Below are positions 3,033 to 42,229 of a DNA stretch of 64,000 bases, one piece after another. Below the pieces are notes generated by a model. The model was not told the origin of the DNA and searched no databases. It saw only the letters and a list, made by a program, of their open reading frames with translations. The stretch lies in NCBI GenBank assembly GCA_964423445.1, contig CAYREQ010000001.1:129732-193731 (forward strand), written 5' to 3'. A program made the position numbers and the translations under genes. Position 1 is the first letter of the stretch, and every line of letters begins with the position of its first letter. Source of the stretch: an uncultured Candidatus Saccharibacteria bacterium (GTDB lineage Bacteria > Patescibacteriota > Minisyncoccia > Phycocordibacterales > UBA9973).

Positions 3033-4139
3033 CTAGAATAGTTTTATTACATCATGATATGTAACTATAAGCATAAGTAATATCAAGACTATAAAACCTA
3101 CCATGTTTGCAGTATTAGACACTTTTGGATTTAGTGGTGAACCTTTTATTTTTTCAATGAGAAGAAAGAATAGTCTTCCACCATCTAGGGCTGGGAAAGG
3201 TATCAAGTTTATGATAGCTAGATTTATAGATATAAGAGCTGCAAAAGACAATAGATATACAAAGCCGAATTGGTATGCATCACCTACTATGCCTACCATA
3301 CCTACTGGCCCAGTAACTGAATTAAAGCTACCTTTGCCCATAATACCATCAGAAATAAGCGTATAAAGGCCTACAGCGGTGCTCTTTGAGAGATGTAGGG
3401 TAAGCTTCATTCCCTCATAAAGAGCTTGGTGTGGGGGCAATTGTACTGTACCAATTTGGTCCATGGATATACCAATTACAGGCTTTTCATCGCCATTTGT
3501 TACAGGTGTAATTTTTACATAACTTACATTTTCGCTAGTAAAATCTTTTCCATTTGAGACATAGCCGATTTCAATTTCCTTACCTTTACTTTCTGCCACT
3601 AAATCAACTACAGTCTCAGGGCTATTACTAGAAGGAGAGAAATCTTTATTGCTTATAGAAAATATTTTATCACCACTCTTTAGACCTGCATTAAAAGCAG
3701 GAGATTCTGGACTGACAGATATAATCACTGTGTGGGCATCTTTTATCTCATAGTCTTGATCTTCACCCACAGACGAAGGAAGTCCTGACATGAAACCAAT
3801 AGATAGTAATAACCATGCGAGTAAGAAGTTTGAGAAAATTCCAGCGAATAATACCAAGGCTTGTTGCCAGTGTGGCTTGCTCACAAAGCTCCTATTTGCA
3901 TCTGGACCATGTGTGTTTTCTTCATTTGGATCTTCACCGAAAATTTTTACGAAACCACCAATAGGTAGGAGATTGAAAGTATATTCTGTCTCCCCTTTTT
4001 TAATACCAAAAAGTTTGGGTGGAAAACCAAAGCCAAATTCATCTACTCGAATACCAAATCTTTTTGCAGTAAAAAAATGGCCAAATTCATGAGCTAGGAC
4101 TAATACTAATAAAATTACTATAAAAATAAATATACTCAT
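3033..4139 (-). CDS. rseP: RIP metalloprotease RseP (site-2 protease)
   Basis: HEFGHF zinc motif in the first transmembrane helix, a central PDZ-like region, a C-terminal LDGG motif, and multiple transmembrane helices. Confidence 0.85.
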   Translation of the reverse strand: MSIFIFIVILLVLVLAHEFGHFFTAKRFGIRVDEFGFGFPPKLFGIKKGETEYTFNLLPIGGFVKIFGEDPNEENTHGPDANRSFVSKPHWQQALVLFAGIFSNFLLAWLLLSIGFMSGLPSSVGEDQDYEIKDAHTVIISVSPESPAFNAGLKSGDKIFSISNKDFSPSSNSPETVVDLVAESKGKEIEIGYVSNGKDFTSENVSYVKITPVTNGDEKPVIGISMDQIGTVQLPPHQALYEGMKLTLHLSKSTAVGLYTLISDGIMGKGSFNSVTGPVGMVGIVGDAYQFGFVYLLSFAALISINLAIINLIPFPALDGGRLFFLLIEKIKGSPLNPKVSNTANMVGFIVLILLMLIVTYHDVIKLF

Positions 4140-33984: not shown

Positions 33985-34167
33985 TTAGTATGTTGAAGGA
34001 TCGTTCCACCTTGATGGATCGACCCGTAATGAAGCCACTGATTTGCTGGCTTCACCATCTTCTTTTTTTTCTTCGACTTCCTCTTCGGCAGTCGAAGGTT
34101 TAGGTTCGTGCTCGGGCACTTGTGCGACCGAGAGAAGAATTGAGTTTGATGTTTCTTTGATAGCCAT
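33985..34167 (-). CDS. hypothetical small acidic protein
   Basis: 60 aa with a strong AAGGAG Shine-Dalgarno 8 nt upstream. GC-rich codon usage like the gene upstream of it. Probably co-transcribed with 34183..34665. Confidence 0.4.
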   Translation of the reverse strand: MAIKETSNSILLSVAQVPEHEPKPSTAEEEVEEKKEDGEASKSVASLRVDPSRWNDPSTY

Positions 34168-34182
34168 TTCCGTATCTCCTTA

Positions 34183-34665
34183 TTAGTGAAAATTACTGTC
34201 GTGGTCAAAAATTACGGTGCCTTCTTTTTTACCGAAAGAAGCAAACCTTTTTTCTTTGTACTCCCGAACCTTCATTCGAGAACTTTTGCTTTTCTTTCGG
34301 TTTTTGATGATGTAAATCACCGAAACTAAAAGTAGCCCAAAGAAAATTGCGATTGAGGCTAGGACTCCAGAAGTCCCACTCAAAAGATAGCTTTTGTAAC
34401 CTCCTTCTTTTACTTGATAACCGGTCGCTAAGGCTGGCGACGGTGTCCTGATCGGCGTCGTTGCTGGCGCCGAAGTGTTTGGTATTTTTACATCCGCCGA
34501 CCTAGTCATCGTCGACGAAGGGGGTCTGTTGTCCAGAGCTAACCCTGGATACAGTTTTGTTTTTGGCGGCAAGACTGTATTTGAATTAGCGGACTTTTTA
34601 GTCTGTGAAAAAACTGGCGAGATTGCCAAAACTACAAAAACTAAAATAAGAAATATTTTCTTCAT
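34183..34665 (-). CDS. hypothetical type-I membrane protein (signal peptide, Pro/Ser/Thr-rich stalk, C-terminal TM anchor)
   Basis: MKKIFLILVFVVLAISPVFSQ signal peptide, low-complexity PST linker, transmembrane helix ...ASIAIFFGLLLVSVIYII and a basic tail. GGAG Shine-Dalgarno 8 nt upstream. Confidence 0.6.
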   Translation of the reverse strand: MKKIFLILVFVVLAISPVFSQTKKSANSNTVLPPKTKLYPGLALDNRPPSSTMTRSADVKIPNTSAPATTPIRTPSPALATGYQVKEGGYKSYLLSGTSGVLASIAIFFGLLLVSVIYIIKNRKKSKSSRMKVREYKEKRFASFGKKEGTVIFDHDSNFH

Positions 34666-34738
34666 TTCAATACTCCTAAACCTATGAAAAAATCAACGAA
34701 CTAGGCAGACATCACAAAAATGTGACACCATAGTTCTT

Positions 34739-34798
34739 TCTACCTAAAAGTATAGCATATTCTTACCTATTTGTCAAGGTAAATAAGCTTATTTTATA
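34739..34798 (-). promoter_or_regulatory. consensus sigma70 promoter, copy A of a 60-nt repeat
   Basis: On the minus strand it reads TTGACA, a 17-nt spacer, then TATACT. The -35 is at 34772-34777 and the -10 at 34749-34754 (plus-strand coordinates). It is flanked by an AT-rich UP-like segment and is 56/60 identical to 36153-36212. Confidence 0.65.
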
Positions 34799-34825
34799 AG
34801 GTTTTTTTGTATAAAAATAGAAAAT

Positions 34826-34852
34826 GGCCGGAACTCATAGAGCCCGGCCAGA
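34826..34852 (-). terminator. Rho-independent terminator of the 388-aa gene
   Basis: GGCCGG...CCGGCC stem, then a T-rich tract on the minus strand. A second GCTCGAG...CTCGAGC hairpin lies at 34880-34900. Confidence 0.55.
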
Positions 34853-34909
34853 TTGATAATTTATTGAGTTTATCTCTCATGCTCGAGTAACGCTCGAGCG
34901 TCGTTTGTT

Positions 34910-36076
34910 TTAGAATCCTTCAGATAATCTTCGGGAATCTTTTTGATACCTAGCAGCCCGATGTCCGCCAGATTGTGCGTAGTGGTCGTAATCTTCGTGA
35001 TCAGAAACCGTTTCGGTTGGTTTCGTGACCACAGAACTTACTACCTCTACTGTCGGCGGCGCGATGCTGACTGGAATCGTATCTTTAGAAGAAAATTTAT
35101 CCTCCGTTAGATTGAGGATGTGTTTTCCTCGGCATTCCTCGTCGGAAACGACCGGTTTGTCTTCGATGAAAACAAACCCTTTGTATGTGTCCCCCGAGTG
35201 AACCGGATTCATGCAGGCCTGAAGGGTCTGCAAGACTTCTTCTGTCCCATCCGGAAATCGATATCGGGCTTGATAAGCTCGAATACCGGGCTCCGGAATA
35301 CGACGAGGCTTCATGGTGGTACCCAAGTAGCCGACCAACCCTTCACCAGAGATAGTCCCGACTTGGATCGGTCCGATACGCCGGATGTCAAAGGTGAACC
35401 CTTCGAGATTAGGATTTCTTTCTCTGTAGAGAGAGCTCGCCCTCTGGTCGAAAAATTTTTCCAGTCTTCTGGTCTCGACCGGTTCGATGCCGCCAGCAAC
35501 ATAAGGCTTGCCTGATGTTATCGGATCAAGTCTGAGCTCGCGATCTTCCCAGCTCTCTTCTTCGTCTTCGTCACTAAAGTCGGGATGCCAATTTCTCGGA
35601 TGCGAGAAAGAAAGCAAAGCTCTCCAGATAAGAAAAACGAGGAATAGTGCGATGACGATGTACGGCGCCAACCAGCCGTAGTCCTTCCACAACATTGCTG
35701 TCGTGTAATTTTCCGGACCGGCTGGAAGTGTCGTAACCAATGGTGGTTTACCCTTCAACGCCGGCTCCGTGGATTCGGTGGAAGCTGTGGGTTCTGTCGT
35801 GGGTGTATTGTATGCCTTCGCATACTCACGCCCCCAGATACCGCGAGTGTCCCCGACTTCGAGTCGGTCGATCGTACCGTCCGGAAGACGGTAACTATCG
35901 CCGGCTTTCATTCGCTTGAAATCGACGTTCGGGTTTAACTTCACGACCTTCGCCATGAAGTTTCCAAAGTCTCTGTGCGACATGATTCCGAAATACAAAT
36001 TTGCCGATACCGGTGTGGTAGCTGTTAACGTTAACAGCATCACCAGTACAAAAATACTAACGAATGTTTTTTTCAT
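34910..36076 (-). CDS. hypothetical single-pass membrane protein (signal peptide, Pro/Thr-rich extracellular stalk, TM, ~230-aa cytoplasmic domain)
   Basis: 388 aa. MKKTFVSIFVLVMLLTLTATTPVSA signal peptide, TPTTEPTASTESTEP linker and a central transmembrane helix WLAPYIVIALFLVFLIW. The coding sequence is visibly GC-rich relative to the rest of the window. Confidence 0.65.
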   Translation of the reverse strand: MKKTFVSIFVLVMLLTLTATTPVSANLYFGIMSHRDFGNFMAKVVKLNPNVDFKRMKAGDSYRLPDGTIDRLEVGDTRGIWGREYAKAYNTPTTEPTASTESTEPALKGKPPLVTTLPAGPENYTTAMLWKDYGWLAPYIVIALFLVFLIWRALLSFSHPRNWHPDFSDEDEEESWEDRELRLDPITSGKPYVAGGIEPVETRRLEKFFDQRASSLYRERNPNLEGFTFDIRRIGPIQVGTISGEGLVGYLGTTMKPRRIPEPGIRAYQARYRFPDGTEEVLQTLQACMNPVHSGDTYKGFVFIEDKPVVSDEECRGKHILNLTEDKFSSKDTIPVSIAPPTVEVVSSVVTKPTETVSDHEDYDHYAQSGGHRAARYQKDSRRLSEGF

Positions 36077-36152
36077 TTCTTTCCTTTCCTATTCTTTTTT
36101 CGAAAAACTTCAGAAATTTAAATGAGCGAAAAAACACGCCTTCATTAAATCA

Positions 36153-36212
36153 TCTACCTAATAGTATAGCATATTATTACCCATTTGTCAAGGTAAATAA
36201 CCTTATTTTATA
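36153..36212 (-). promoter_or_regulatory. consensus sigma70 promoter, copy B of a 60-nt repeat
   Basis: TTGACA, 17 nt, TATACT on the minus strand. The -35 is at 36186-36191 and the -10 at 36163-36168. It drives the 388-aa gene. Confidence 0.65.
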
Positions 36213-36267
36213 TAGCTATATTCGTTTTATTGGAATTTTTTATTAAAAATGTTATATTGCCTCGATA

Positions 36268-36334
36268 GGCCCTATCGTCCCTCGGCCATAGCCAGTAGGC
36301 TCTGTCCTACGGGCGAGGCTAACGGTTAGGACAT
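36268..36334 (+). repeat. 27-nt copy of the tRNA-Glu 5' end, split by a 40-nt insert with CCTCG/CGAGG inverted termini
   Basis: Positions 36268-36279 plus 36320-36334 reproduce tRNA-Glu nt 1-27 exactly. The insert 36280-36319 is cctcggccatagccagtaggctctgtcctacgggcgaggc. Confidence 0.7.
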
Positions 36335-36337
36335 TTT

Positions 36338-36592
36338 ATGCATACAGTTTATGTATTAAAAAGTTTAGTAGATAATAATTTATACATAGGGTGTACTTCT
36401 GATTTAAAAAGTAGGCTGAAGTATCACAACGAAGGTAAAGTAAAATCTACAAAGCATCGTAGGCCTTTAGAATTATTATATAAAGAAAATTATGATAACA
36501 TCTATGAGGCTTTCAAAGTAGAAAGATATTATAAAAGTGCAAAAGGAAAACGTGATTTAAAAAATAAAATGGCCCTATCGTCTAACGGTTAG
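36338..36592 (+). CDS. GIY-YIG nuclease family protein (stand-alone, YhbQ-like)
   Basis: YVLKS...NLYIGCTSDLKSRLKYHNEG GIY-YIG motif, followed by conserved R/E/N positions. 84 aa. The last 22 nt overlap the 5' end of tRNA-Glu. Confidence 0.75.
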   Translation: MHTVYVLKSLVDNNLYIGCTSDLKSRLKYHNEGKVKSTKHRRPLELLYKENYDNIYEAFKVERYYKSAKGKRDLKNKMALSSNG

Positions 36593-36642
36593 GACATCGC
36601 CTTCTCAAGGCGGTAATCAGGGTTCGATTCCCTGTAGGGTCA
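36571..36642 (+). tRNA. tRNA-Glu (anticodon CTC)
   Basis: GGCCCTATCGTCTAACGGTTAGGACATCGCCTTCTCAAGGCGGTAATCAGGGTTCGATTCCCTGTAGGGTCA. Glu-type D-loop, anticodon loop TTCTCAA, TTCGATTCC T-loop. Confidence 0.8.
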
Positions 36643-36656
36643 CAAAGCACTAATAA

Positions 36657-36687
36657 AAAAAGAGCCCACTACTGGGCTCTTTTTTGT
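36657..36687. terminator. bidirectional Rho-independent terminator (nested palindrome)
   Basis: AAAAAGAGCCCACTACTGGGCTCTTTTTT, enclosed by CACAAAGCAC...GTGCTTTGTG. It serves tRNA-Glu on the plus strand and the minus-strand small-protein operon. Confidence 0.7.
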
Positions 36688-36812
36688 GCTTTGTGAAGAC
36701 GGAAGCATAATTTCACAGTAGTGAAATAGCTGAGTCCGGGTCTGGAAAATTTTCTTTTGACGAAAAGAAAATTATTGTGGACCACGTAAATTTTTGTACG
36801 CAAAGCGTTCAA

Positions 36813-37001
36813 TTATTTCTCCAGTTCCTCTTGAGTTTCTTTCTTAGCTTCCATCTTATAAGTTTCAAGAAGCGTAATAAGTCCACAGATTATTAGAAAA
36901 ACAACCAGATAAGTAATCCAAGAACTTATACCTTTAAATGTACGTCCAGCCAACACTCCAACCCCGAGACTGAACATAATGTAACCTAAATATTTTTGCA
37001 T
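36813..37001 (-). CDS. hypothetical small membrane protein (2 TM)
   Basis: 62 aa, two hydrophobic helices. Last gene of the six-gene minus-strand operon. Confidence 0.45.
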   Translation of the reverse strand: MQKYLGYIMFSLGVGVLAGRTFKGISSWITYLVVFLIICGLITLLETYKMEAKKETQEELEK

Positions 37002-37002
37002 A

Positions 37003-37704
37003 TTATTTTTCTTTATTTAAATCAGAGTATTCTTCTATTATGTTATTAGCATCTGTTAACTTTTCAAAAAAGTTAGTGCATTGCATGGGAACATTTTGGA
37101 TGGAAGTAATTTTTGCTTTCCTATCTAAGGTTTCTTGAGAACAATCTATGCTTTCGTAATCATAATCATATAAACATGACGCTCTTGGACTCACTGGAGT
37201 ATATGTCAAACAATTATCATAATCCGCTTTTACTTTTCCTTTTAATAAATTACAGCTTCTAAGTTCATCTTTGTAGTTTTTATCAATCGTTGGTTGGATA
37301 CACGTTTTAAATTTGGCTTTTAAATCATCTAGGCTTGAAATAGCTTGGTCGTATTTTTGTTTTAATTGTTCCTTTTGTAAATTTTCTTGTTTCGTTTGTA
37401 TTAAATAATAAATACCAGTTACTAAAGCAATAACTATAGCTAGAGTTAATAATGCTTTAATAACTTTTTTTCTAGGAGGTATGATATTTGAAATTTTGTG
37501 CTTATTTATACTATCTTCAAATTTTATATTGTTATTATGCCGCCATCCTATTGTGTAAAATATTAGTACCGCGGGAATTAAAATAGAGAGAAATGTAGCA
37601 AAACTTGAGTAATCTGACTGGTCCAAAGAAGCAAAAAATCCAATTATTCCAAAAATCCATATAGATATCAATTGACCTCTTGTAATTTTATAAATGTTTT
37701 TCAT
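37003..37704 (-). CDS. hypothetical membrane protein with Cys-rich C-terminal domain
   Basis: 233 aa. Three N-terminal transmembrane helices, a coiled-coil segment, then 8 Cys in about 90 aa (CIQPT...CNLL...CLTY...CLYDYDYESIDC...CTNF). Confidence 0.5.
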   Translation of the reverse strand: MKNIYKITRGQLISIWIFGIIGFFASLDQSDYSSFATFLSILIPAVLIFYTIGWRHNNNIKFEDSINKHKISNIIPPRKKVIKALLTLAIVIALVTGIYYLIQTKQENLQKEQLKQKYDQAISSLDDLKAKFKTCIQPTIDKNYKDELRSCNLLKGKVKADYDNCLTYTPVSPRASCLYDYDYESIDCSQETLDRKAKITSIQNVPMQCTNFFEKLTDANNIIEEYSDLNKEK

Positions 37705-37707
37705 AAA

Positions 37708-38121
37708 TTATTGATTATTTTTAATTCTAAATTCTAACCAACTATCAGAACACTCTTTCAAGGATTTAAGTACTGTTTCTTTGAGTTCTTGATTTTCTAA
37801 CTTCATATCTAAGCTTTTTTTCATTCTCTGTAAAGCCTCTTCATCTGAAATTTTATCACACGATTCAACCTTGCCATTTGATATTTTTGTAAAATAACCT
37901 ATTAAATATGCCCCCATGGTTTCCCTTATATTTTCAGCCATTATTTTATCGCCAGAATCAAAGAAGTATTTTGTAATTATATTTAATGCTTCTTCTAGCT
38001 TATTAACTGGATGTGGTAAAAAAGATTCTGGAACTATTACAAAGACACGACTCATTTTATCTGCAATTTCTTGATAATTCTGCCAATCTTTAAAAATTTT
38101 CTCAGCTTCTTTAAATTCCAT
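37708..38121 (-). CDS. hypothetical cytoplasmic protein
   Basis: 137 aa, no transmembrane helix. The reading frame is tightly packed within the operon. Confidence 0.45.
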   Translation of the reverse strand: MEFKEAEKIFKDWQNYQEIADKMSRVFVIVPESFLPHPVNKLEEALNIITKYFFDSGDKIMAENIRETMGAYLIGYFTKISNGKVESCDKISDEEALQRMKKSLDMKLENQELKETVLKSLKECSDSWLEFRIKNNQ

Positions 38122-38126
38122 ATATT

Positions 38127-38339
38127 TTATTTATTTAAACCTTTTGCCCTAATGCATAGATTATAAAATACTTCTATACCGTCACGCTCTAAATTAGGAT
38201 TTTCCTTTATAATATTACTAATTTTCCGACTACATGACGAATAAATTTTAGATACCCTAATTTCATACCAATAAAAAACAAAACCTAAAATCACCAAGGC
38301 AATTAAAATTATATATTTATATTCTTTAAGTTTTTGCAT
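38127..38339 (-). CDS. hypothetical small membrane protein (1 TM)
   Basis: 70 aa with an N-terminal transmembrane helix. The 6-nt gap to the upstream gene suggests translational coupling. Confidence 0.4.
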   Translation of the reverse strand: MQKLKEYKYIILIALVILGFVFYWYEIRVSKIYSSCSRKISNIIKENPNLERDGIEVFYNLCIRAKGLNK

Positions 38340-38345
38340 AAAAAA

Positions 38346-38765
38346 TTAACGTGTATTGTAATGTGCATCTGTTACTGAAACAAGGTAGAAAATCCTTTTA
38401 AGTGTATAAAAGAAAATTCTTCCCTTATCTGTATCGATGAATAATTCCCTGACTTCTACGTCATCATGCAATCCTTTATACAGCTTTAAGTAATCACCCT
38501 TAGGAATAATTGAAGAAGATTTAAAATTTCCCAAATCTGTATCCTCAAAAATTCCACAGCCAACTTTTTTAATTAATCTTAATGCTTTTAATGCTCTTTT
38601 TTTCTCTAGGTTGTCTATTCCACATTCTTTTTCATTGTATTTTGCAAATGAAATTAAAAAAGGTGATGACTCAGGGTCATCCTCTTGTTGAGAAAGTTGA
38701 GCAATTTGTTCAGGAATTACTGAATCATTTAATGGCAACTCACTTGCTCCTTCTGGAATAGACAT
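38346..38765 (-). CDS. hypothetical protein, candidate toxin partner of the Panacea-domain protein
   Basis: 139 aa. The C-terminal beta-rich segment GRIFFYTLKRIFYLVSVTDAHY is loosely RelE/ParE-like. It lies 10 nt downstream of the Panacea gene. Confidence 0.4.
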   Translation of the reverse strand: MSIPEGASELPLNDSVIPEQIAQLSQQEDDPESSPFLISFAKYNEKECGIDNLEKKRALKALRLIKKVGCGIFEDTDLGNFKSSSIIPKGDYLKLYKGLHDDVEVRELFIDTDKGRIFFYTLKRIFYLVSVTDAHYNTR

Positions 38766-38775
38766 AGATTCAGAC

Positions 38776-39267
38776 CTAGGCTTTTAATTCCTTAAGCTTA
38801 GAGGAATAAAATTCTTTCATGGATTCCAAAGTTATCTCATTTTCAGAAATTTCATCAACTGAAAGTCCTTCTCTTGCGTCTTGCCAAGGAGATTCTGAAT
38901 GGGTAAGTGCTTCAAGATAAGAAGAATCGTATTTACCATAAACATCCCACACTTGGTCTAAAATTTTTCTGTCTTCCTCAGTTATTAAATTAATAAGGGC
39001 TGAGTCAGGCTCTTTTTTTATTGCATTGAAACTAAATTCTTTATATCTATCGTATAAGCTTTTTATTGCAGGTCCATGAACCCATGCTTCAATTTTTTCA
39101 TCAAAAATCGGACGTTTATTTATGACCAAAGACCATGCTTGAGCATAGTAAACAAGTTTTTGAATTTTCTTATTTGTAATAACCTTTCTGGGAGATGATA
39201 GGTTAGACTTTTGAATGAAGAACTCTGCTATTGAGCTAGCAGGGGTCTTTACTGCTAATTTATTCAT
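38776..39267 (-). CDS. Panacea-domain (DUF4065, SocA-like) protein, putative antitoxin
   Basis: KIQKLVYYAQAWSLVINKRPIFDEKIEAWVHGPAIKSLYDRY matches the Panacea consensus (KLxYYAQ..W....G.P.F.E.IEAW..GPV...LY). Confidence 0.6.
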   Translation of the reverse strand: MNKLAVKTPASSIAEFFIQKSNLSSPRKVITNKKIQKLVYYAQAWSLVINKRPIFDEKIEAWVHGPAIKSLYDRYKEFSFNAIKKEPDSALINLITEEDRKILDQVWDVYGKYDSSYLEALTHSESPWQDAREGLSVDEISENEITLESMKEFYSSKLKELKA

Positions 39268-42087: not shown

Positions 42088-42106
42088 GATTACTGAATCG
42101 CGCATT

Positions 42107-42143
42107 TAGCTCAGTGTAGCGACGCCTGTAATACGCTTTTTAA
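42107..42143 (+). other. tRNA-like 5' fragment (pseudo-tRNA remnant) preceding tRNA-Val
   Basis: GCGCATTTAGCTCAGTGTAGCGACGCC resembles the acceptor 5' strand plus D-arm of the adjacent tRNA-Val (GCGCGATTAGCTCAGTGGTAGAGCGACCCC). It lacks the anticodon and T arms. Confidence 0.35.
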
Positions 42144-42156
42144 AAAATAAATATAT

Positions 42157-42229
42157 GCGCGATTAGCTCAGTGGTAGAGCGACCCCTTGACGTGGGGTAG
42201 GCCGGGGGTTCAATCCCCTCATCGCGCAC
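42157..42229 (+). tRNA. tRNA-Val (anticodon GAC)
   Basis: GCGCGATTAGCTCAGTGGTAGAGCGACCCCTTGACGTGGGGTAGGCCGGGGGTTCAATCCCCTCATCGCGCA. Anticodon loop TTGACGT. Confidence 0.8.

Follow-up and report, generated by a model that had tools for sequence, protein, structure and literature searches.

In a genome of an uncultured Candidatus Saccharibacteria bacterium (contig CAYREQ010000001.1 of assembly GCA_964423445.1), a tRNA-Glu(CTC) gene carries in its 5' part a small gene for a GIY-YIG protein, behind which a second copy of the first 27 nt of the tRNA is part of an intact tRNA. We analysed this locus within a stretch of 64,000 nt (the window) and consider it likely to be a selfish, homing-like nuclease cassette that resides inside the tRNA gene and uses the tRNA promoter. 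The initial annotation of the window had taken the direct repeat around the nuclease gene for the footprint of a mobile insertion, and this reading was borne out by relatives, in which the same syntenic site was found empty, occupied and decayed.

The anatomy of the locus agreed with what had been annotated. An intact tRNA-Glu was placed at 36571-36643 by ARAGORN and at 36571-36642 by Rfam, with a tRNA score of 61.8 bits. The 84-amino-acid (aa) open reading frame (ORF) before it overlaps the tRNA by 22 nt including its TAG stop codon, and sequence and translation concur that these final 22 nt are tRNA nt 1-22. Its ATG at 36338 begins 3 nt past the end of a displaced tRNA fragment (36334), which matches tRNA nt 1-12 and nt 13-27 exactly; further copies of either piece are absent from the 64-kb window. 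The fragment is cut after nt 12 by a 40-nt insert bearing the inverted-repeat ends CCTCG...CGAGG at 36280-36319, with a split point that is ambiguous by one C. This insert, an imperfect GC-rich palindrome (hereafter PAL) in a window with a GC content of about 35%, folds as a DNA hairpin (-10 kcal/mol, z=-2.1), and Rfam returned no known RNA family for fragment plus palindrome. The motif AGGA at 36328-36331, in the D-stem part of the fragment and 6 nt 5' of the ATG, likely serves the ORF as its Shine-Dalgarno sequence. The annotated sigma70-like promoter (TTGGAA-17-TATATT) was recovered at 36230-36258, 5' of the fragment, and a consensus scan detected no comparable promoter between ORF and tRNA. 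Chance does not account for the arrangement, which was seen again in dozens of independent loci, each time built from the tRNA sequence of the genome concerned.

Empty, occupied and decayed states of the tRNA-Glu site

The left flank of the locus (Obg, MYG1, VTT, YqeY, RNase T-like and RmuC genes) is collinear in several relatives, whose loci are given here by L numbers. One of them, L151, is collinear over 28.5-33.9 kb and carries a tRNA-Glu(CTC) that is 100% identical over 78 nt and lies directly behind AAAAATGTTATAT, with neither fragment nor palindrome nor ORF. This plain tRNA behind the same promoter provides the empty-site alignment that the initial annotation had called for, and it defines the insertion. 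L150, L144-146 and L124 are likewise empty. The AAAAATGTTATAT block is situated 9 nt upstream of tRNA +1 at L151, L150, L145 and L124, and the promoter of the empty sites has the form AAAAATG(T/C)TATAT, in line with the earlier proposal that the promoter of the fragment is the ancestral tRNA promoter. The -10 box and tRNA +1 are separated by 9 nt at the empty sites, as are the -10 box and the fragment in the window. This equal spacing identifies the fragment as the native 5' gene end, and the ORF together with the second copy of nt 1-27 as the insertion, whose boundaries are ambiguous in register within the 27-nt repeat (Table 1). Compared with the empty tRNA gene, the occupied locus is longer by about 263 nt and, in addition, by the 40-nt palindrome.

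At the RmuC-linked site, the cassette is present in the window and in L003, and L149 shows a remnant consisting of tRNA nt 1-12 and about 40 nt of debris followed by the tRNA. The contig of L143, which has the closest RmuC gene (95%), ends before the locus. In L147 (6380-6920) and L148, the RmuC-linked tRNA-Glu(CTC) contains a different GIY-YIG cassette with a 79-aa ORF, a fragment of nt 1-11, AT-rich palindromes and a direct repeat of about 38 nt on both sides of the ORF, which suggests that two cassette families independently invaded one tRNA gene. Furthermore, nt 1-12 of the L003 fragment (GGCCTCATCGTC) are those of the tRNA in the empty loci L145 and L124 and differ from L003's own tRNA, the functional tRNA having a different 5' strand that pairs through wobble pairs. 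On sequence grounds, this case supports the displaced fragment as the native remnant.

Upstream fragments without an ORF, which the initial annotation had named as the observation that would speak for a decayed tandem tRNA duplication, do occur in relatives. Under such an explanation the tRNA 5' region would have been doubled once in an ancestor, with an unrelated gene coming to lie in between, and would have been inherited vertically; fragments lacking an ORF upstream of tRNAs at L082, L085 and L092 and before a tRNA-Val gene of the window (42101-42124) are compatible with this. However, the fragment-only loci (L068, L149, the second unit of L040, and L029/L092) retain remnants of the ORF start and end and therefore are decayed cassettes, not plain tRNA duplications: L068 keeps ATGCATATAG...AAAGATAAATT, i.e. 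start and end of the ORF, and of the ORF in the second unit of L040 only the ATG and the tail are left. Moreover, a single non-mobile duplication is at odds with a syntenic site that is empty, occupied, decayed or differently occupied in close relatives, with a synonymous divergence (dS) of the ORF far below that of host genes, and with the occurrence of one cassette type at Glu-CTC, Glu-TTC, Gln-CTG, Gln-TTG and Ser genes in unrelated contexts. We consider it extremely unlikely, and the empty L151 with its identical tRNA largely refutes it.

Presence/absence polymorphism at one conserved site, accompanied by degenerate copies, is the pattern of a homing cycle. Of the earlier suggestion of a homing-type element, the homing-like cycle of site states stands, whereas the protein is a bare catalytic domain of 84 aa that lacks a DNA-binding domain, and classical homing is therefore not established.

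Table 1. Features of the cassette locus in window coordinates
Feature	Position	Strand	Basis
tRNA promoter, TTGGAA-17-TATATT, TG-extended -10	36230-36258	+	consensus scan; equal block at empty sites
Displaced tRNA-Glu nt 1-12, original 5' gene end	36268-36279	+	12/12 exact; native promoter context
PAL, 40-nt GC-rich imperfect palindrome CCTCGGCCATAG...CTACGGGCGAGG plus one C	36280-36319		only copy in the window
Displaced tRNA-Glu nt 13-27	36320-36334	+	15/15 exact match
Segment extra relative to empty site L151: TTT, ORF body, second copy of nt 1-27	36335-36597	+	comparison of window and L151
Stand-alone GIY-YIG nuclease gene, 84 aa, stop TAG = tRNA nt 20-22	36338-36592	+	Pfam PF01541
Intact, functional-looking tRNA-Glu(CTC)	36571-36643	+	ARAGORN; same as L151 tRNA
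Intrinsic terminator, 13-bp stem and T run	36656-36685	+	closes the transcription unit

Several further features were noted in the surroundings. A conserved non-coding element of about 125 nt (GTGAAGACGGAAGC...AGCTGAGTCCGGGxCTGG...ATTGTGGxxCAC) is located just past the tRNA terminator at 36686-36815 and also occurs in L134 (666-792), L003 (3506-3628, with a diverged copy at about 3340-3470) and L149 (4602-4697); it was seen at loci bearing a cassette or a remnant, not at empty sites, and had no Rfam match. Upstream of a tRNA-Val gene (42157-42229), positions 42101-42156 hold a degenerate tRNA-Val 5' copy (GCGCATTTAGCTCAGTGTAGCGAC), 33 nt from the tRNA, followed by an A-rich tail resembling the 3' end of the cassette ORF; here the window probably contains the remnant of another cassette that has decayed completely. 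Between RmuC and the tRNA locus, the GC content rises to 46% (34001-36000) against about 35% for the window. Neither of the two minus-strand genes in this GC-richer stretch (34183-34665 and 34910-36076) matched Pfam, and each has in front of it one copy of a duplicated promoter-like block (AGTATAGCATA...TTGTCAAGGTAAATAA; 34745-34800 and 36163-36212). Just past the tRNA locus, a minus-strand ORF (38776-39267) whose product contains a SocA/Panacea antitoxin domain (E=1.5e-22) is surrounded by small genes that lack annotation, which may form a small accessory island.

Recurrence and age of the cassette in Patescibacteria

The combination of a split 5' fragment, a small GIY-YIG ORF and an intact tRNA was found at about 60 loci of Patescibacteria, at tRNA-Gln, tRNA-Glu and tRNA-Ser genes. 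A protein-similarity scan with one genome per species provided an unbiased sample of 22 loci. In 19 of these a tRNA-Glu or tRNA-Gln gene on the same strand starts -22 to +11 nt past the ORF or its remnant, the ORF being intact in 18 and a remnant in L022. PAL accompanied all 20 true family members of the sample; it resides in the split tRNA 5' copy upstream of the ORF in 19 and in a disrupted tRNA copy downstream of it in L020, a locus with the mirror order of intact tRNA, ORF and palindrome-disrupted tRNA copy. Wherever an intact tRNA was present in this sample, the upstream copy corresponded to the 5' part of the genome's own tRNA, so that the copies track lineage-specific acceptor stems such as TGCGGGG, TGGGAGA, TGCCGGT and GGCTCTA, and they were split by about 25-50 nt.

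Across 48 loci, the fragment without its insert aligned to the tRNA from nt 1 to about nt 24-30, mostly with 100% identity. In 30 of 48 non-redundant loci the stop codon of the ORF lies inside the tRNA, either as TAA at nt 13-15 of tRNA-Gln or as TAG at nt 20-22 of tRNA-Glu. Tandem units of tRNA and nuclease gene were present in L040 and L029. More distant GIY-YIG subfamilies have a like layout at tRNA-Ser (L100, L137), and variants were detected at tRNA-Thr (L046, without a palindrome) and at tRNA-Asn. In the latter case (L024, reverse strand, about 3230-3270) a different GC-rich palindrome, CTCCGCCATCCGCC AGTTGG CGGAGGCGGAG, replaces the D-arm of the displaced fragment and extends its D-stem. 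Motifs resembling that of L024 (GGCGGAGGCGGAG) were noted in four other loci.

Small GIY-YIG ORFs of other subfamilies were also observed just 3' of the cassette tRNA-Gln in L040 (7737-8027), L074, L078, L117, L118 (two), L123 and L106; in L118 they adjoin insertion-interrupted fragments of the tRNA 3' half. The tRNA-Gln regions look like hotspots that accumulate small GIY-YIG genes. Contigs with a cassette are titled Woesearchaeota archaeon (L008) or Gammaproteobacteria (L019, L020), which reflects either mis-binning or a spread beyond Patescibacteria. A literature search on GIY-YIG proteins and tRNA in the Candidate Phyla Radiation (CPR)/Patescibacteria retrieved nothing relevant, and in the literature searched we found described neither PAL nor GIY-YIG cassettes that reside in bacterial tRNA genes and are accompanied by a doubled 5' end. 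The cassette-in-tRNA arrangement with its GC-rich palindrome thus seems not to have been described before.

Between the window and L003, dS of the 84-codon ORF is about 0.7, whereas the adjacent RmuC gene is saturated at synonymous sites; for RmuC a dS value (0.66) was obtained only against the much closer L143. By this measure the ORF is younger than the divergence of its hosts. The closest cassette, in L134, has 84% nucleotide identity over 36268-36812, lies behind a different upstream gene and precedes a tRNA with a TTC anticodon. Taken together, the low dS of the ORF relative to RmuC and the comparison of site states indicate that the cassette moves horizontally among Patescibacteria, as far as can be judged from sequences.

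The body of the window tRNA-Glu(CTC) is nearest to TTC-type Glu tRNAs of L079, L068 and L134 (66-68 of 73 nt) and not to the CTC type of L003 and L145, with an identical CTC tRNA in L151; it may represent an anticodon switch. Transfer of the whole tRNA along with the cassette, which the resemblance to TTC-type tRNAs suggested, was ruled out here by the identical tRNA of the empty L151. A phage origin is also unsupported, since PAL had no match in viral contigs, the ORF product had none in PHROGs, and only two weak matches to the ORF, in Staphylococcus phages, were obtained among phage genomes.

The GIY-YIG protein and the dispersed palindrome

The ORF product matched Pfam PF01541 over residues 1-71 of 84 with E=7e-15 and 55.5 bits (cut-off 22.6), strong profile support for the GIY-YIG assignment that the initial annotation had made dependent on it. 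We found 70 close homologues in Patescibacteria, mostly of 79-85 aa. Y5, Y16, G18, R26 and E62 were invariant in 47 homologues and H30 and N31 were kept in at least 90%; the conserved residues presumably map onto Y6, Y17, R27, H31 and E75 of I-TevI. The C-termini of the nearest homologues, ALSSNG or APSSNG, result from read-through into tRNA-Glu. Since the last 7 aa vary with the tRNA sequence, they are not selected. In contrast, dN/dS (ratio of nonsynonymous to synonymous divergence) values of 0.04-0.30 among the Glu-type ORFs point to purifying selection on a functional gene.

The best relatives of solved structure were the stand-alone, single-domain UPF0213 proteins EF2693 and BH0048 (1ywl, E=4.6e-4; 1zg2, E=1.2e-3), followed by I-TevI (0.12) and Slx1 (0.16), and the NCBIfam model for group I intron endonucleases gave 21.9 bits, below its cut-off of 56. 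An exhaustive search yielded 449 representative clusters at E<=1e-10, the best 150 of which are nearly all 80-140 aa long. The protein is therefore classified as a bare catalytic domain of the Slx1/UPF0213 cluster and a predicted nuclease. It resembles UPF0213 and other members of the prokaryotic Slx1 cluster (1ywl, 1zg2; PMC1564403) in being single-domain and of similar size (80-107 aa, within the range of about 80-110 aa typical of UPF0213), and differs from them by low sequence identity and by its link to tRNA genes and a palindrome, which has not been reported for those proteins. In the representative library, a predicted protein of 1390 aa (P0191) aligned with the ORF in 20 separate places, best of all with residues 2-26, and is probably a translation through a tandem array of cassette 5' units.

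A link of the Slx1 cluster to RNA metabolism was once suggested from prokaryotic Slx1-like GIY-YIG domains fused to the tRNA Gm18 methyltransferase TrmH (PMC1564403). Such fusions would fit an RNA-level device, in which fragment and hairpin form a regulatory leader that balances tRNA maturation against nuclease translation, with the fragment competing for the 3' acceptor strand of the tRNA or mimicking the tRNA, or with the protein acting on tRNA or other RNA. In the minimum free energy fold of the 429-nt unit (z=-5.6), the 3' acceptor strand of the tRNA is indeed paired with the upstream GGCCCUA, and the diverged fragments of L002 and L003 can still pair with the 3' strand via wobble pairs. 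However, this fold is trivial given the identical sequence of both copies, and the diverged fragments of L013, L011, L147 and L046 break the pairing. A selected pairing of fragment nt 1-7 with the 3' acceptor strand, compatible with two diverged fragments and incompatible with four, was rejected. Moreover, PAL varies in orientation and position, leaving no conserved RNA sequence or geometry, and its in-frame insertion into proteins (see below) is DNA-level behaviour. We judge a device of this kind very unlikely.

PAL has the conserved form C|CCTCGGCCGTAG-(1 to 30 nt)-CTAYGGGCGAGG|C, with one fixed asymmetry of the arms that appears as a G.G mismatch in the hairpin. A metagenome scan for this pattern yielded at least 120 loci, and altogether 150 loci contained 161 copies, 160 of them with a C on either side. 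Copies fall into length classes of 25/26, 38-40 and 53 nt, the longest being PAL nested in PAL. Judged against intact tRNAs, each insertion lengthens the sequence by PAL and a single C. Among the sampled loci were 73 solo copies, of which 25 are inserted in frame inside long ORFs, adding 9, 13 or 18 codons; 26+1 = 27 nt, for example, yield xLGRSPTGEA or ASPVGLRPR (loci with in-frame copies include L026, L032, L039, L052, L056, L062, L064, L075, L089 and L126). As judged from these copies, the 40-nt insert is a member of a dispersed mobile palindrome family and not a local oddity.

Within displaced tRNA fragments, PAL was found in forward orientation after tRNA nt 12/13 in 36 non-redundant loci, and in reverse orientation after nt 4-6 (L008, L012, L016, L018, L049, L090, L117, L128, L138), after nt 21 (L019) and after nt 9-10 of tRNA-Ser. 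These position and orientation classes are interleaved on the ORF tree, which implies that PAL entered the spare fragment repeatedly. A mobile unit made up of both PAL and ORF, with a fixed distance from PAL to the start codon, did not hold up, because L016, L090 and L128 have long spacers and the orientation of PAL relative to the ORF varies.

The close company of PAL and ORF could alternatively mean that a Slx1/UPF0213-like GIY-YIG protein mobilises PAL in the way a RAYT (REP-associated tyrosine transposase) mobilises REP (repetitive extragenic palindromic) sequences, with a 'master copy' at the tRNA-embedded locus and with the spare tRNA fragment as the closest site at which an insertion does no harm. 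This explanation, which partly overlaps with the cassette reading, is tentative and in our estimation improbable. It is favoured by the constant presence of PAL beside the ORF in the protein-based sample and by the finding that, among the matches listed, about 40% of the loci from the PAL pattern scan lie at a GIY-YIG ORF and/or at tRNA-Gln/Glu/Ser. PAL is a low-copy sequence, and its sole copy in the 64-kb window is beside the ORF. At least six PAL positions or orientations are scattered over the ORF tree, where for example L138 (reverse, after nt 4) and L014 (forward, after nt 12) are sisters, implying repeated local insertion. In addition, tandem PAL arrays are located by the ORF (4 copies in L031, 3 in L106 and 2 in L004), PAL flanks the ORF on both sides in L040, and other palindromes accompany other GIY-YIG subfamilies (L024, L147). 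Slx1-type enzymes are structure-specific, and a palindrome can extrude as a hairpin or cruciform; moreover, the PAL termini CCTCG fit CNNNG, the cleavage motif of the I-TevI nuclease domain, which may be a lead.

Against mobilisation of PAL by the nuclease, many PAL copies have no GIY-YIG gene within several kb (action in trans being possible), and tRNA-Ser cassettes of another GIY-YIG subfamily bear the same PAL, which weakens the case for a one-to-one match between enzyme and palindrome. The association could also be produced by survivorship if interrupted repeats resist deletion, and we know of no GIY-YIG transposase in prokaryotes. The wider proposal of a two-part mobile system, in which a tRNA-sheltered 'master' GIY-YIG cassette mobilises PAL across Patescibacteria, in-frame protein insertions included, appears doubtful to us.

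Like the repeats of REP/RAYT systems (PMC3733652), PAL is an imperfect palindrome, short and rich in GC, that is dispersed through an AT-rich genome, and it shares with palindromic families the occurrence in both orientations, tandem arrays, self-nesting and in-frame insertion into proteins. Unlike REP-type families, it has strict C|PAL|C flanks and a constant association with a GIY-YIG gene. The GTAG of PAL lies inside the stem, and an unpaired GTAG/CGTC end tag was not seen. A tyrosine transposase was not seen beside PAL, where the adjacent gene is of the GIY-YIG type, in an analysis that included no search aimed at RAYT. Further resemblances exist to Rickettsia palindromic elements and to the GC-rich palindromes or GC clusters that flank fungal mitochondrial tRNA genes.

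Proposed cycle and relation to known systems

In the cassette mechanism that we favour, a bare GIY-YIG domain gene of about 240 nt was inserted into the 5' part of tRNA-Glu(CTC), and the tRNA survives through the doubling of nt 1-27. The original copy, still on the native promoter, would serve as the 5' leader of the nuclease mRNA, and the second completes the intact tRNA right after the ORF; promoter, fragment, ORF, tRNA and terminator are predicted to yield one transcript of about 36265-36685. The stop codon of the ORF is borrowed from the tRNA D-loop. Cleavage by RNase P at 36571, the tRNA +1, would free the tRNA and leave a non-stop nuclease message, a putative brake on nuclease expression. 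The cassette family decays in place along a cycle like that of homing-endonuclease genes, comprising invasion, deletion of the ORF, a remnant stage and loss. In this cycle the nuclease would most likely provoke a break or recombination at cassette-free tRNA-Gln/Glu genes, two isoacceptor families that have the D-arm TCGTCTAAYGGTWAGGAC in common, and the two tRNA-derived repeats could act as portable homology arms. As a 27-nt direct repeat at a distance of 300 nt invites precise excision, we propose that only PAL-interrupted cassettes persist: PAL would split the repeat into 12 and 15 nt, too short for precise excision, or alternatively would abolish a nuclease site located within nt 4-22. Such survivorship of interrupted cassettes probably explains why PAL is always present.

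Several points weigh against this mechanism. The 84-aa protein has no counterpart of the DNA-binding domain of classical GIY-YIG homing enzymes, a domain present, to our knowledge, in every characterised member, and its nearest solved relatives are stand-alone UPF0213 proteins and then Slx1. The regenerated tRNA is identical to the empty-site tRNA, and a nuclease recognising only the tRNA gene would therefore cut its own chromosome. If a new 5' part were imported, fragment and tRNA should differ once the cassette has crossed to another lineage; yet most loci show identity in spite of lineage-differing acceptor stems, with L003, L002, L011, L013, L147 and L046 as exceptions. Furthermore, the dS comparison rests on a gene of 84 codons, and viral contigs, phage genomes and PHROGs contain no relatives of note.

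SegB of phage T4, a GIY-YIG homing enzyme whose recognition sequence is a conserved tRNA motif, spreads together with tRNA genes (PMC2330249), and it drives tandem amplification of tRNA+segB units (PMC13096335). The cassette is similar to T4/T6 SegB in its GIY-YIG domain, in the placement of the gene among tRNA genes and in the tandem units of L040 and L029. SegB differs in being larger, with a 27-bp recognition site (PMC2330249), and in being phage-borne and located between tRNA genes rather than inside one, with neither duplication of a target fragment nor a palindrome. Another parallel is offered by mobile ORFs of fungal mitochondria that displace a duplicated gene terminus: in the 'gene hybrids' of Allomyces atp6 and Glomus atp6/atp9/cox2/nad3, an endonuclease ORF lies in a host gene that stays functional, as a terminal segment is duplicated and the native part is displaced as a non-functional fragment, and ORF and gene are co-transcribed and can be read in phase (PMC3630166). 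The locus described here shows this arrangement of ORF, duplicated segment and displaced native copy in mirror image, at the 5' instead of the 3' end. The fungal insertions affect the 3' end of protein genes, and a foreign, divergent functional copy (63% identity) confers immunity, whereas here the 5' end of a bacterial tRNA gene is concerned and the displaced copy bears a palindrome. The window and most loci have two identical copies; the L003 fragment agrees with the tRNAs of empty sites and not with the tRNA of L003 itself. GIY-YIG non-intron insertions in CPR rRNA genes (PMC11270868) come from the same radiation and also place ORFs within structural RNA genes; they are presumably excised or tolerated, and no target duplication, tRNA link or palindrome has been reported for them.

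SegB is reportedly a protein of about 220 aa with a DNA-binding region. Islands and prophages with integrases insert into tRNA genes, regenerate the tRNA by a carried or duplicated segment and leave a direct repeat; they duplicate the tRNA 3' end, are kilobases long and encode a tyrosine integrase. Here, in contrast, it is the 5' end that occurs twice, and the nuclease gene is the only gene on an insert of about 260 nt. An island or prophage was accordingly rejected, as the repeat is the 5' end of the tRNA and the flanking ORFs (34183-39267) contain no integrase domain. A group I or other intron was rejected as well: none of the Rfam intron families matched at E<=10, the tRNA exists in complete form, and the insertion does not interrupt a sole tRNA copy, as a group I or bulge-helix-bulge tRNA intron would.

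Selfish nuclease genes are known to spare their hosts in three ways, by residing in introns, in inteins or between genes. The cassette would represent a fourth route in bacteria, within an essential tRNA gene that is kept whole by a short 5' duplication and from which it borrows the promoter, the stop codon and probably the ribosome-binding site. The pattern is widespread in Patescibacteria, where tRNA pseudo-fragments arising from cassettes can confuse annotation, and it ties a large family of GIY-YIG proteins of 80-100 aa, to which no function had been assigned, to a concrete genomic behaviour. It also brings to light a GC-rich palindromic repeat that had so far gone unnoticed and that enters CPR proteins in frame. 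If the nuclease does act on the palindrome, it would be a new kind of transposition enzyme, and the two-part system, if real, would constitute a GIY-YIG counterpart of RAYT/REP and provide a function for orphan small GIY-YIG proteins.

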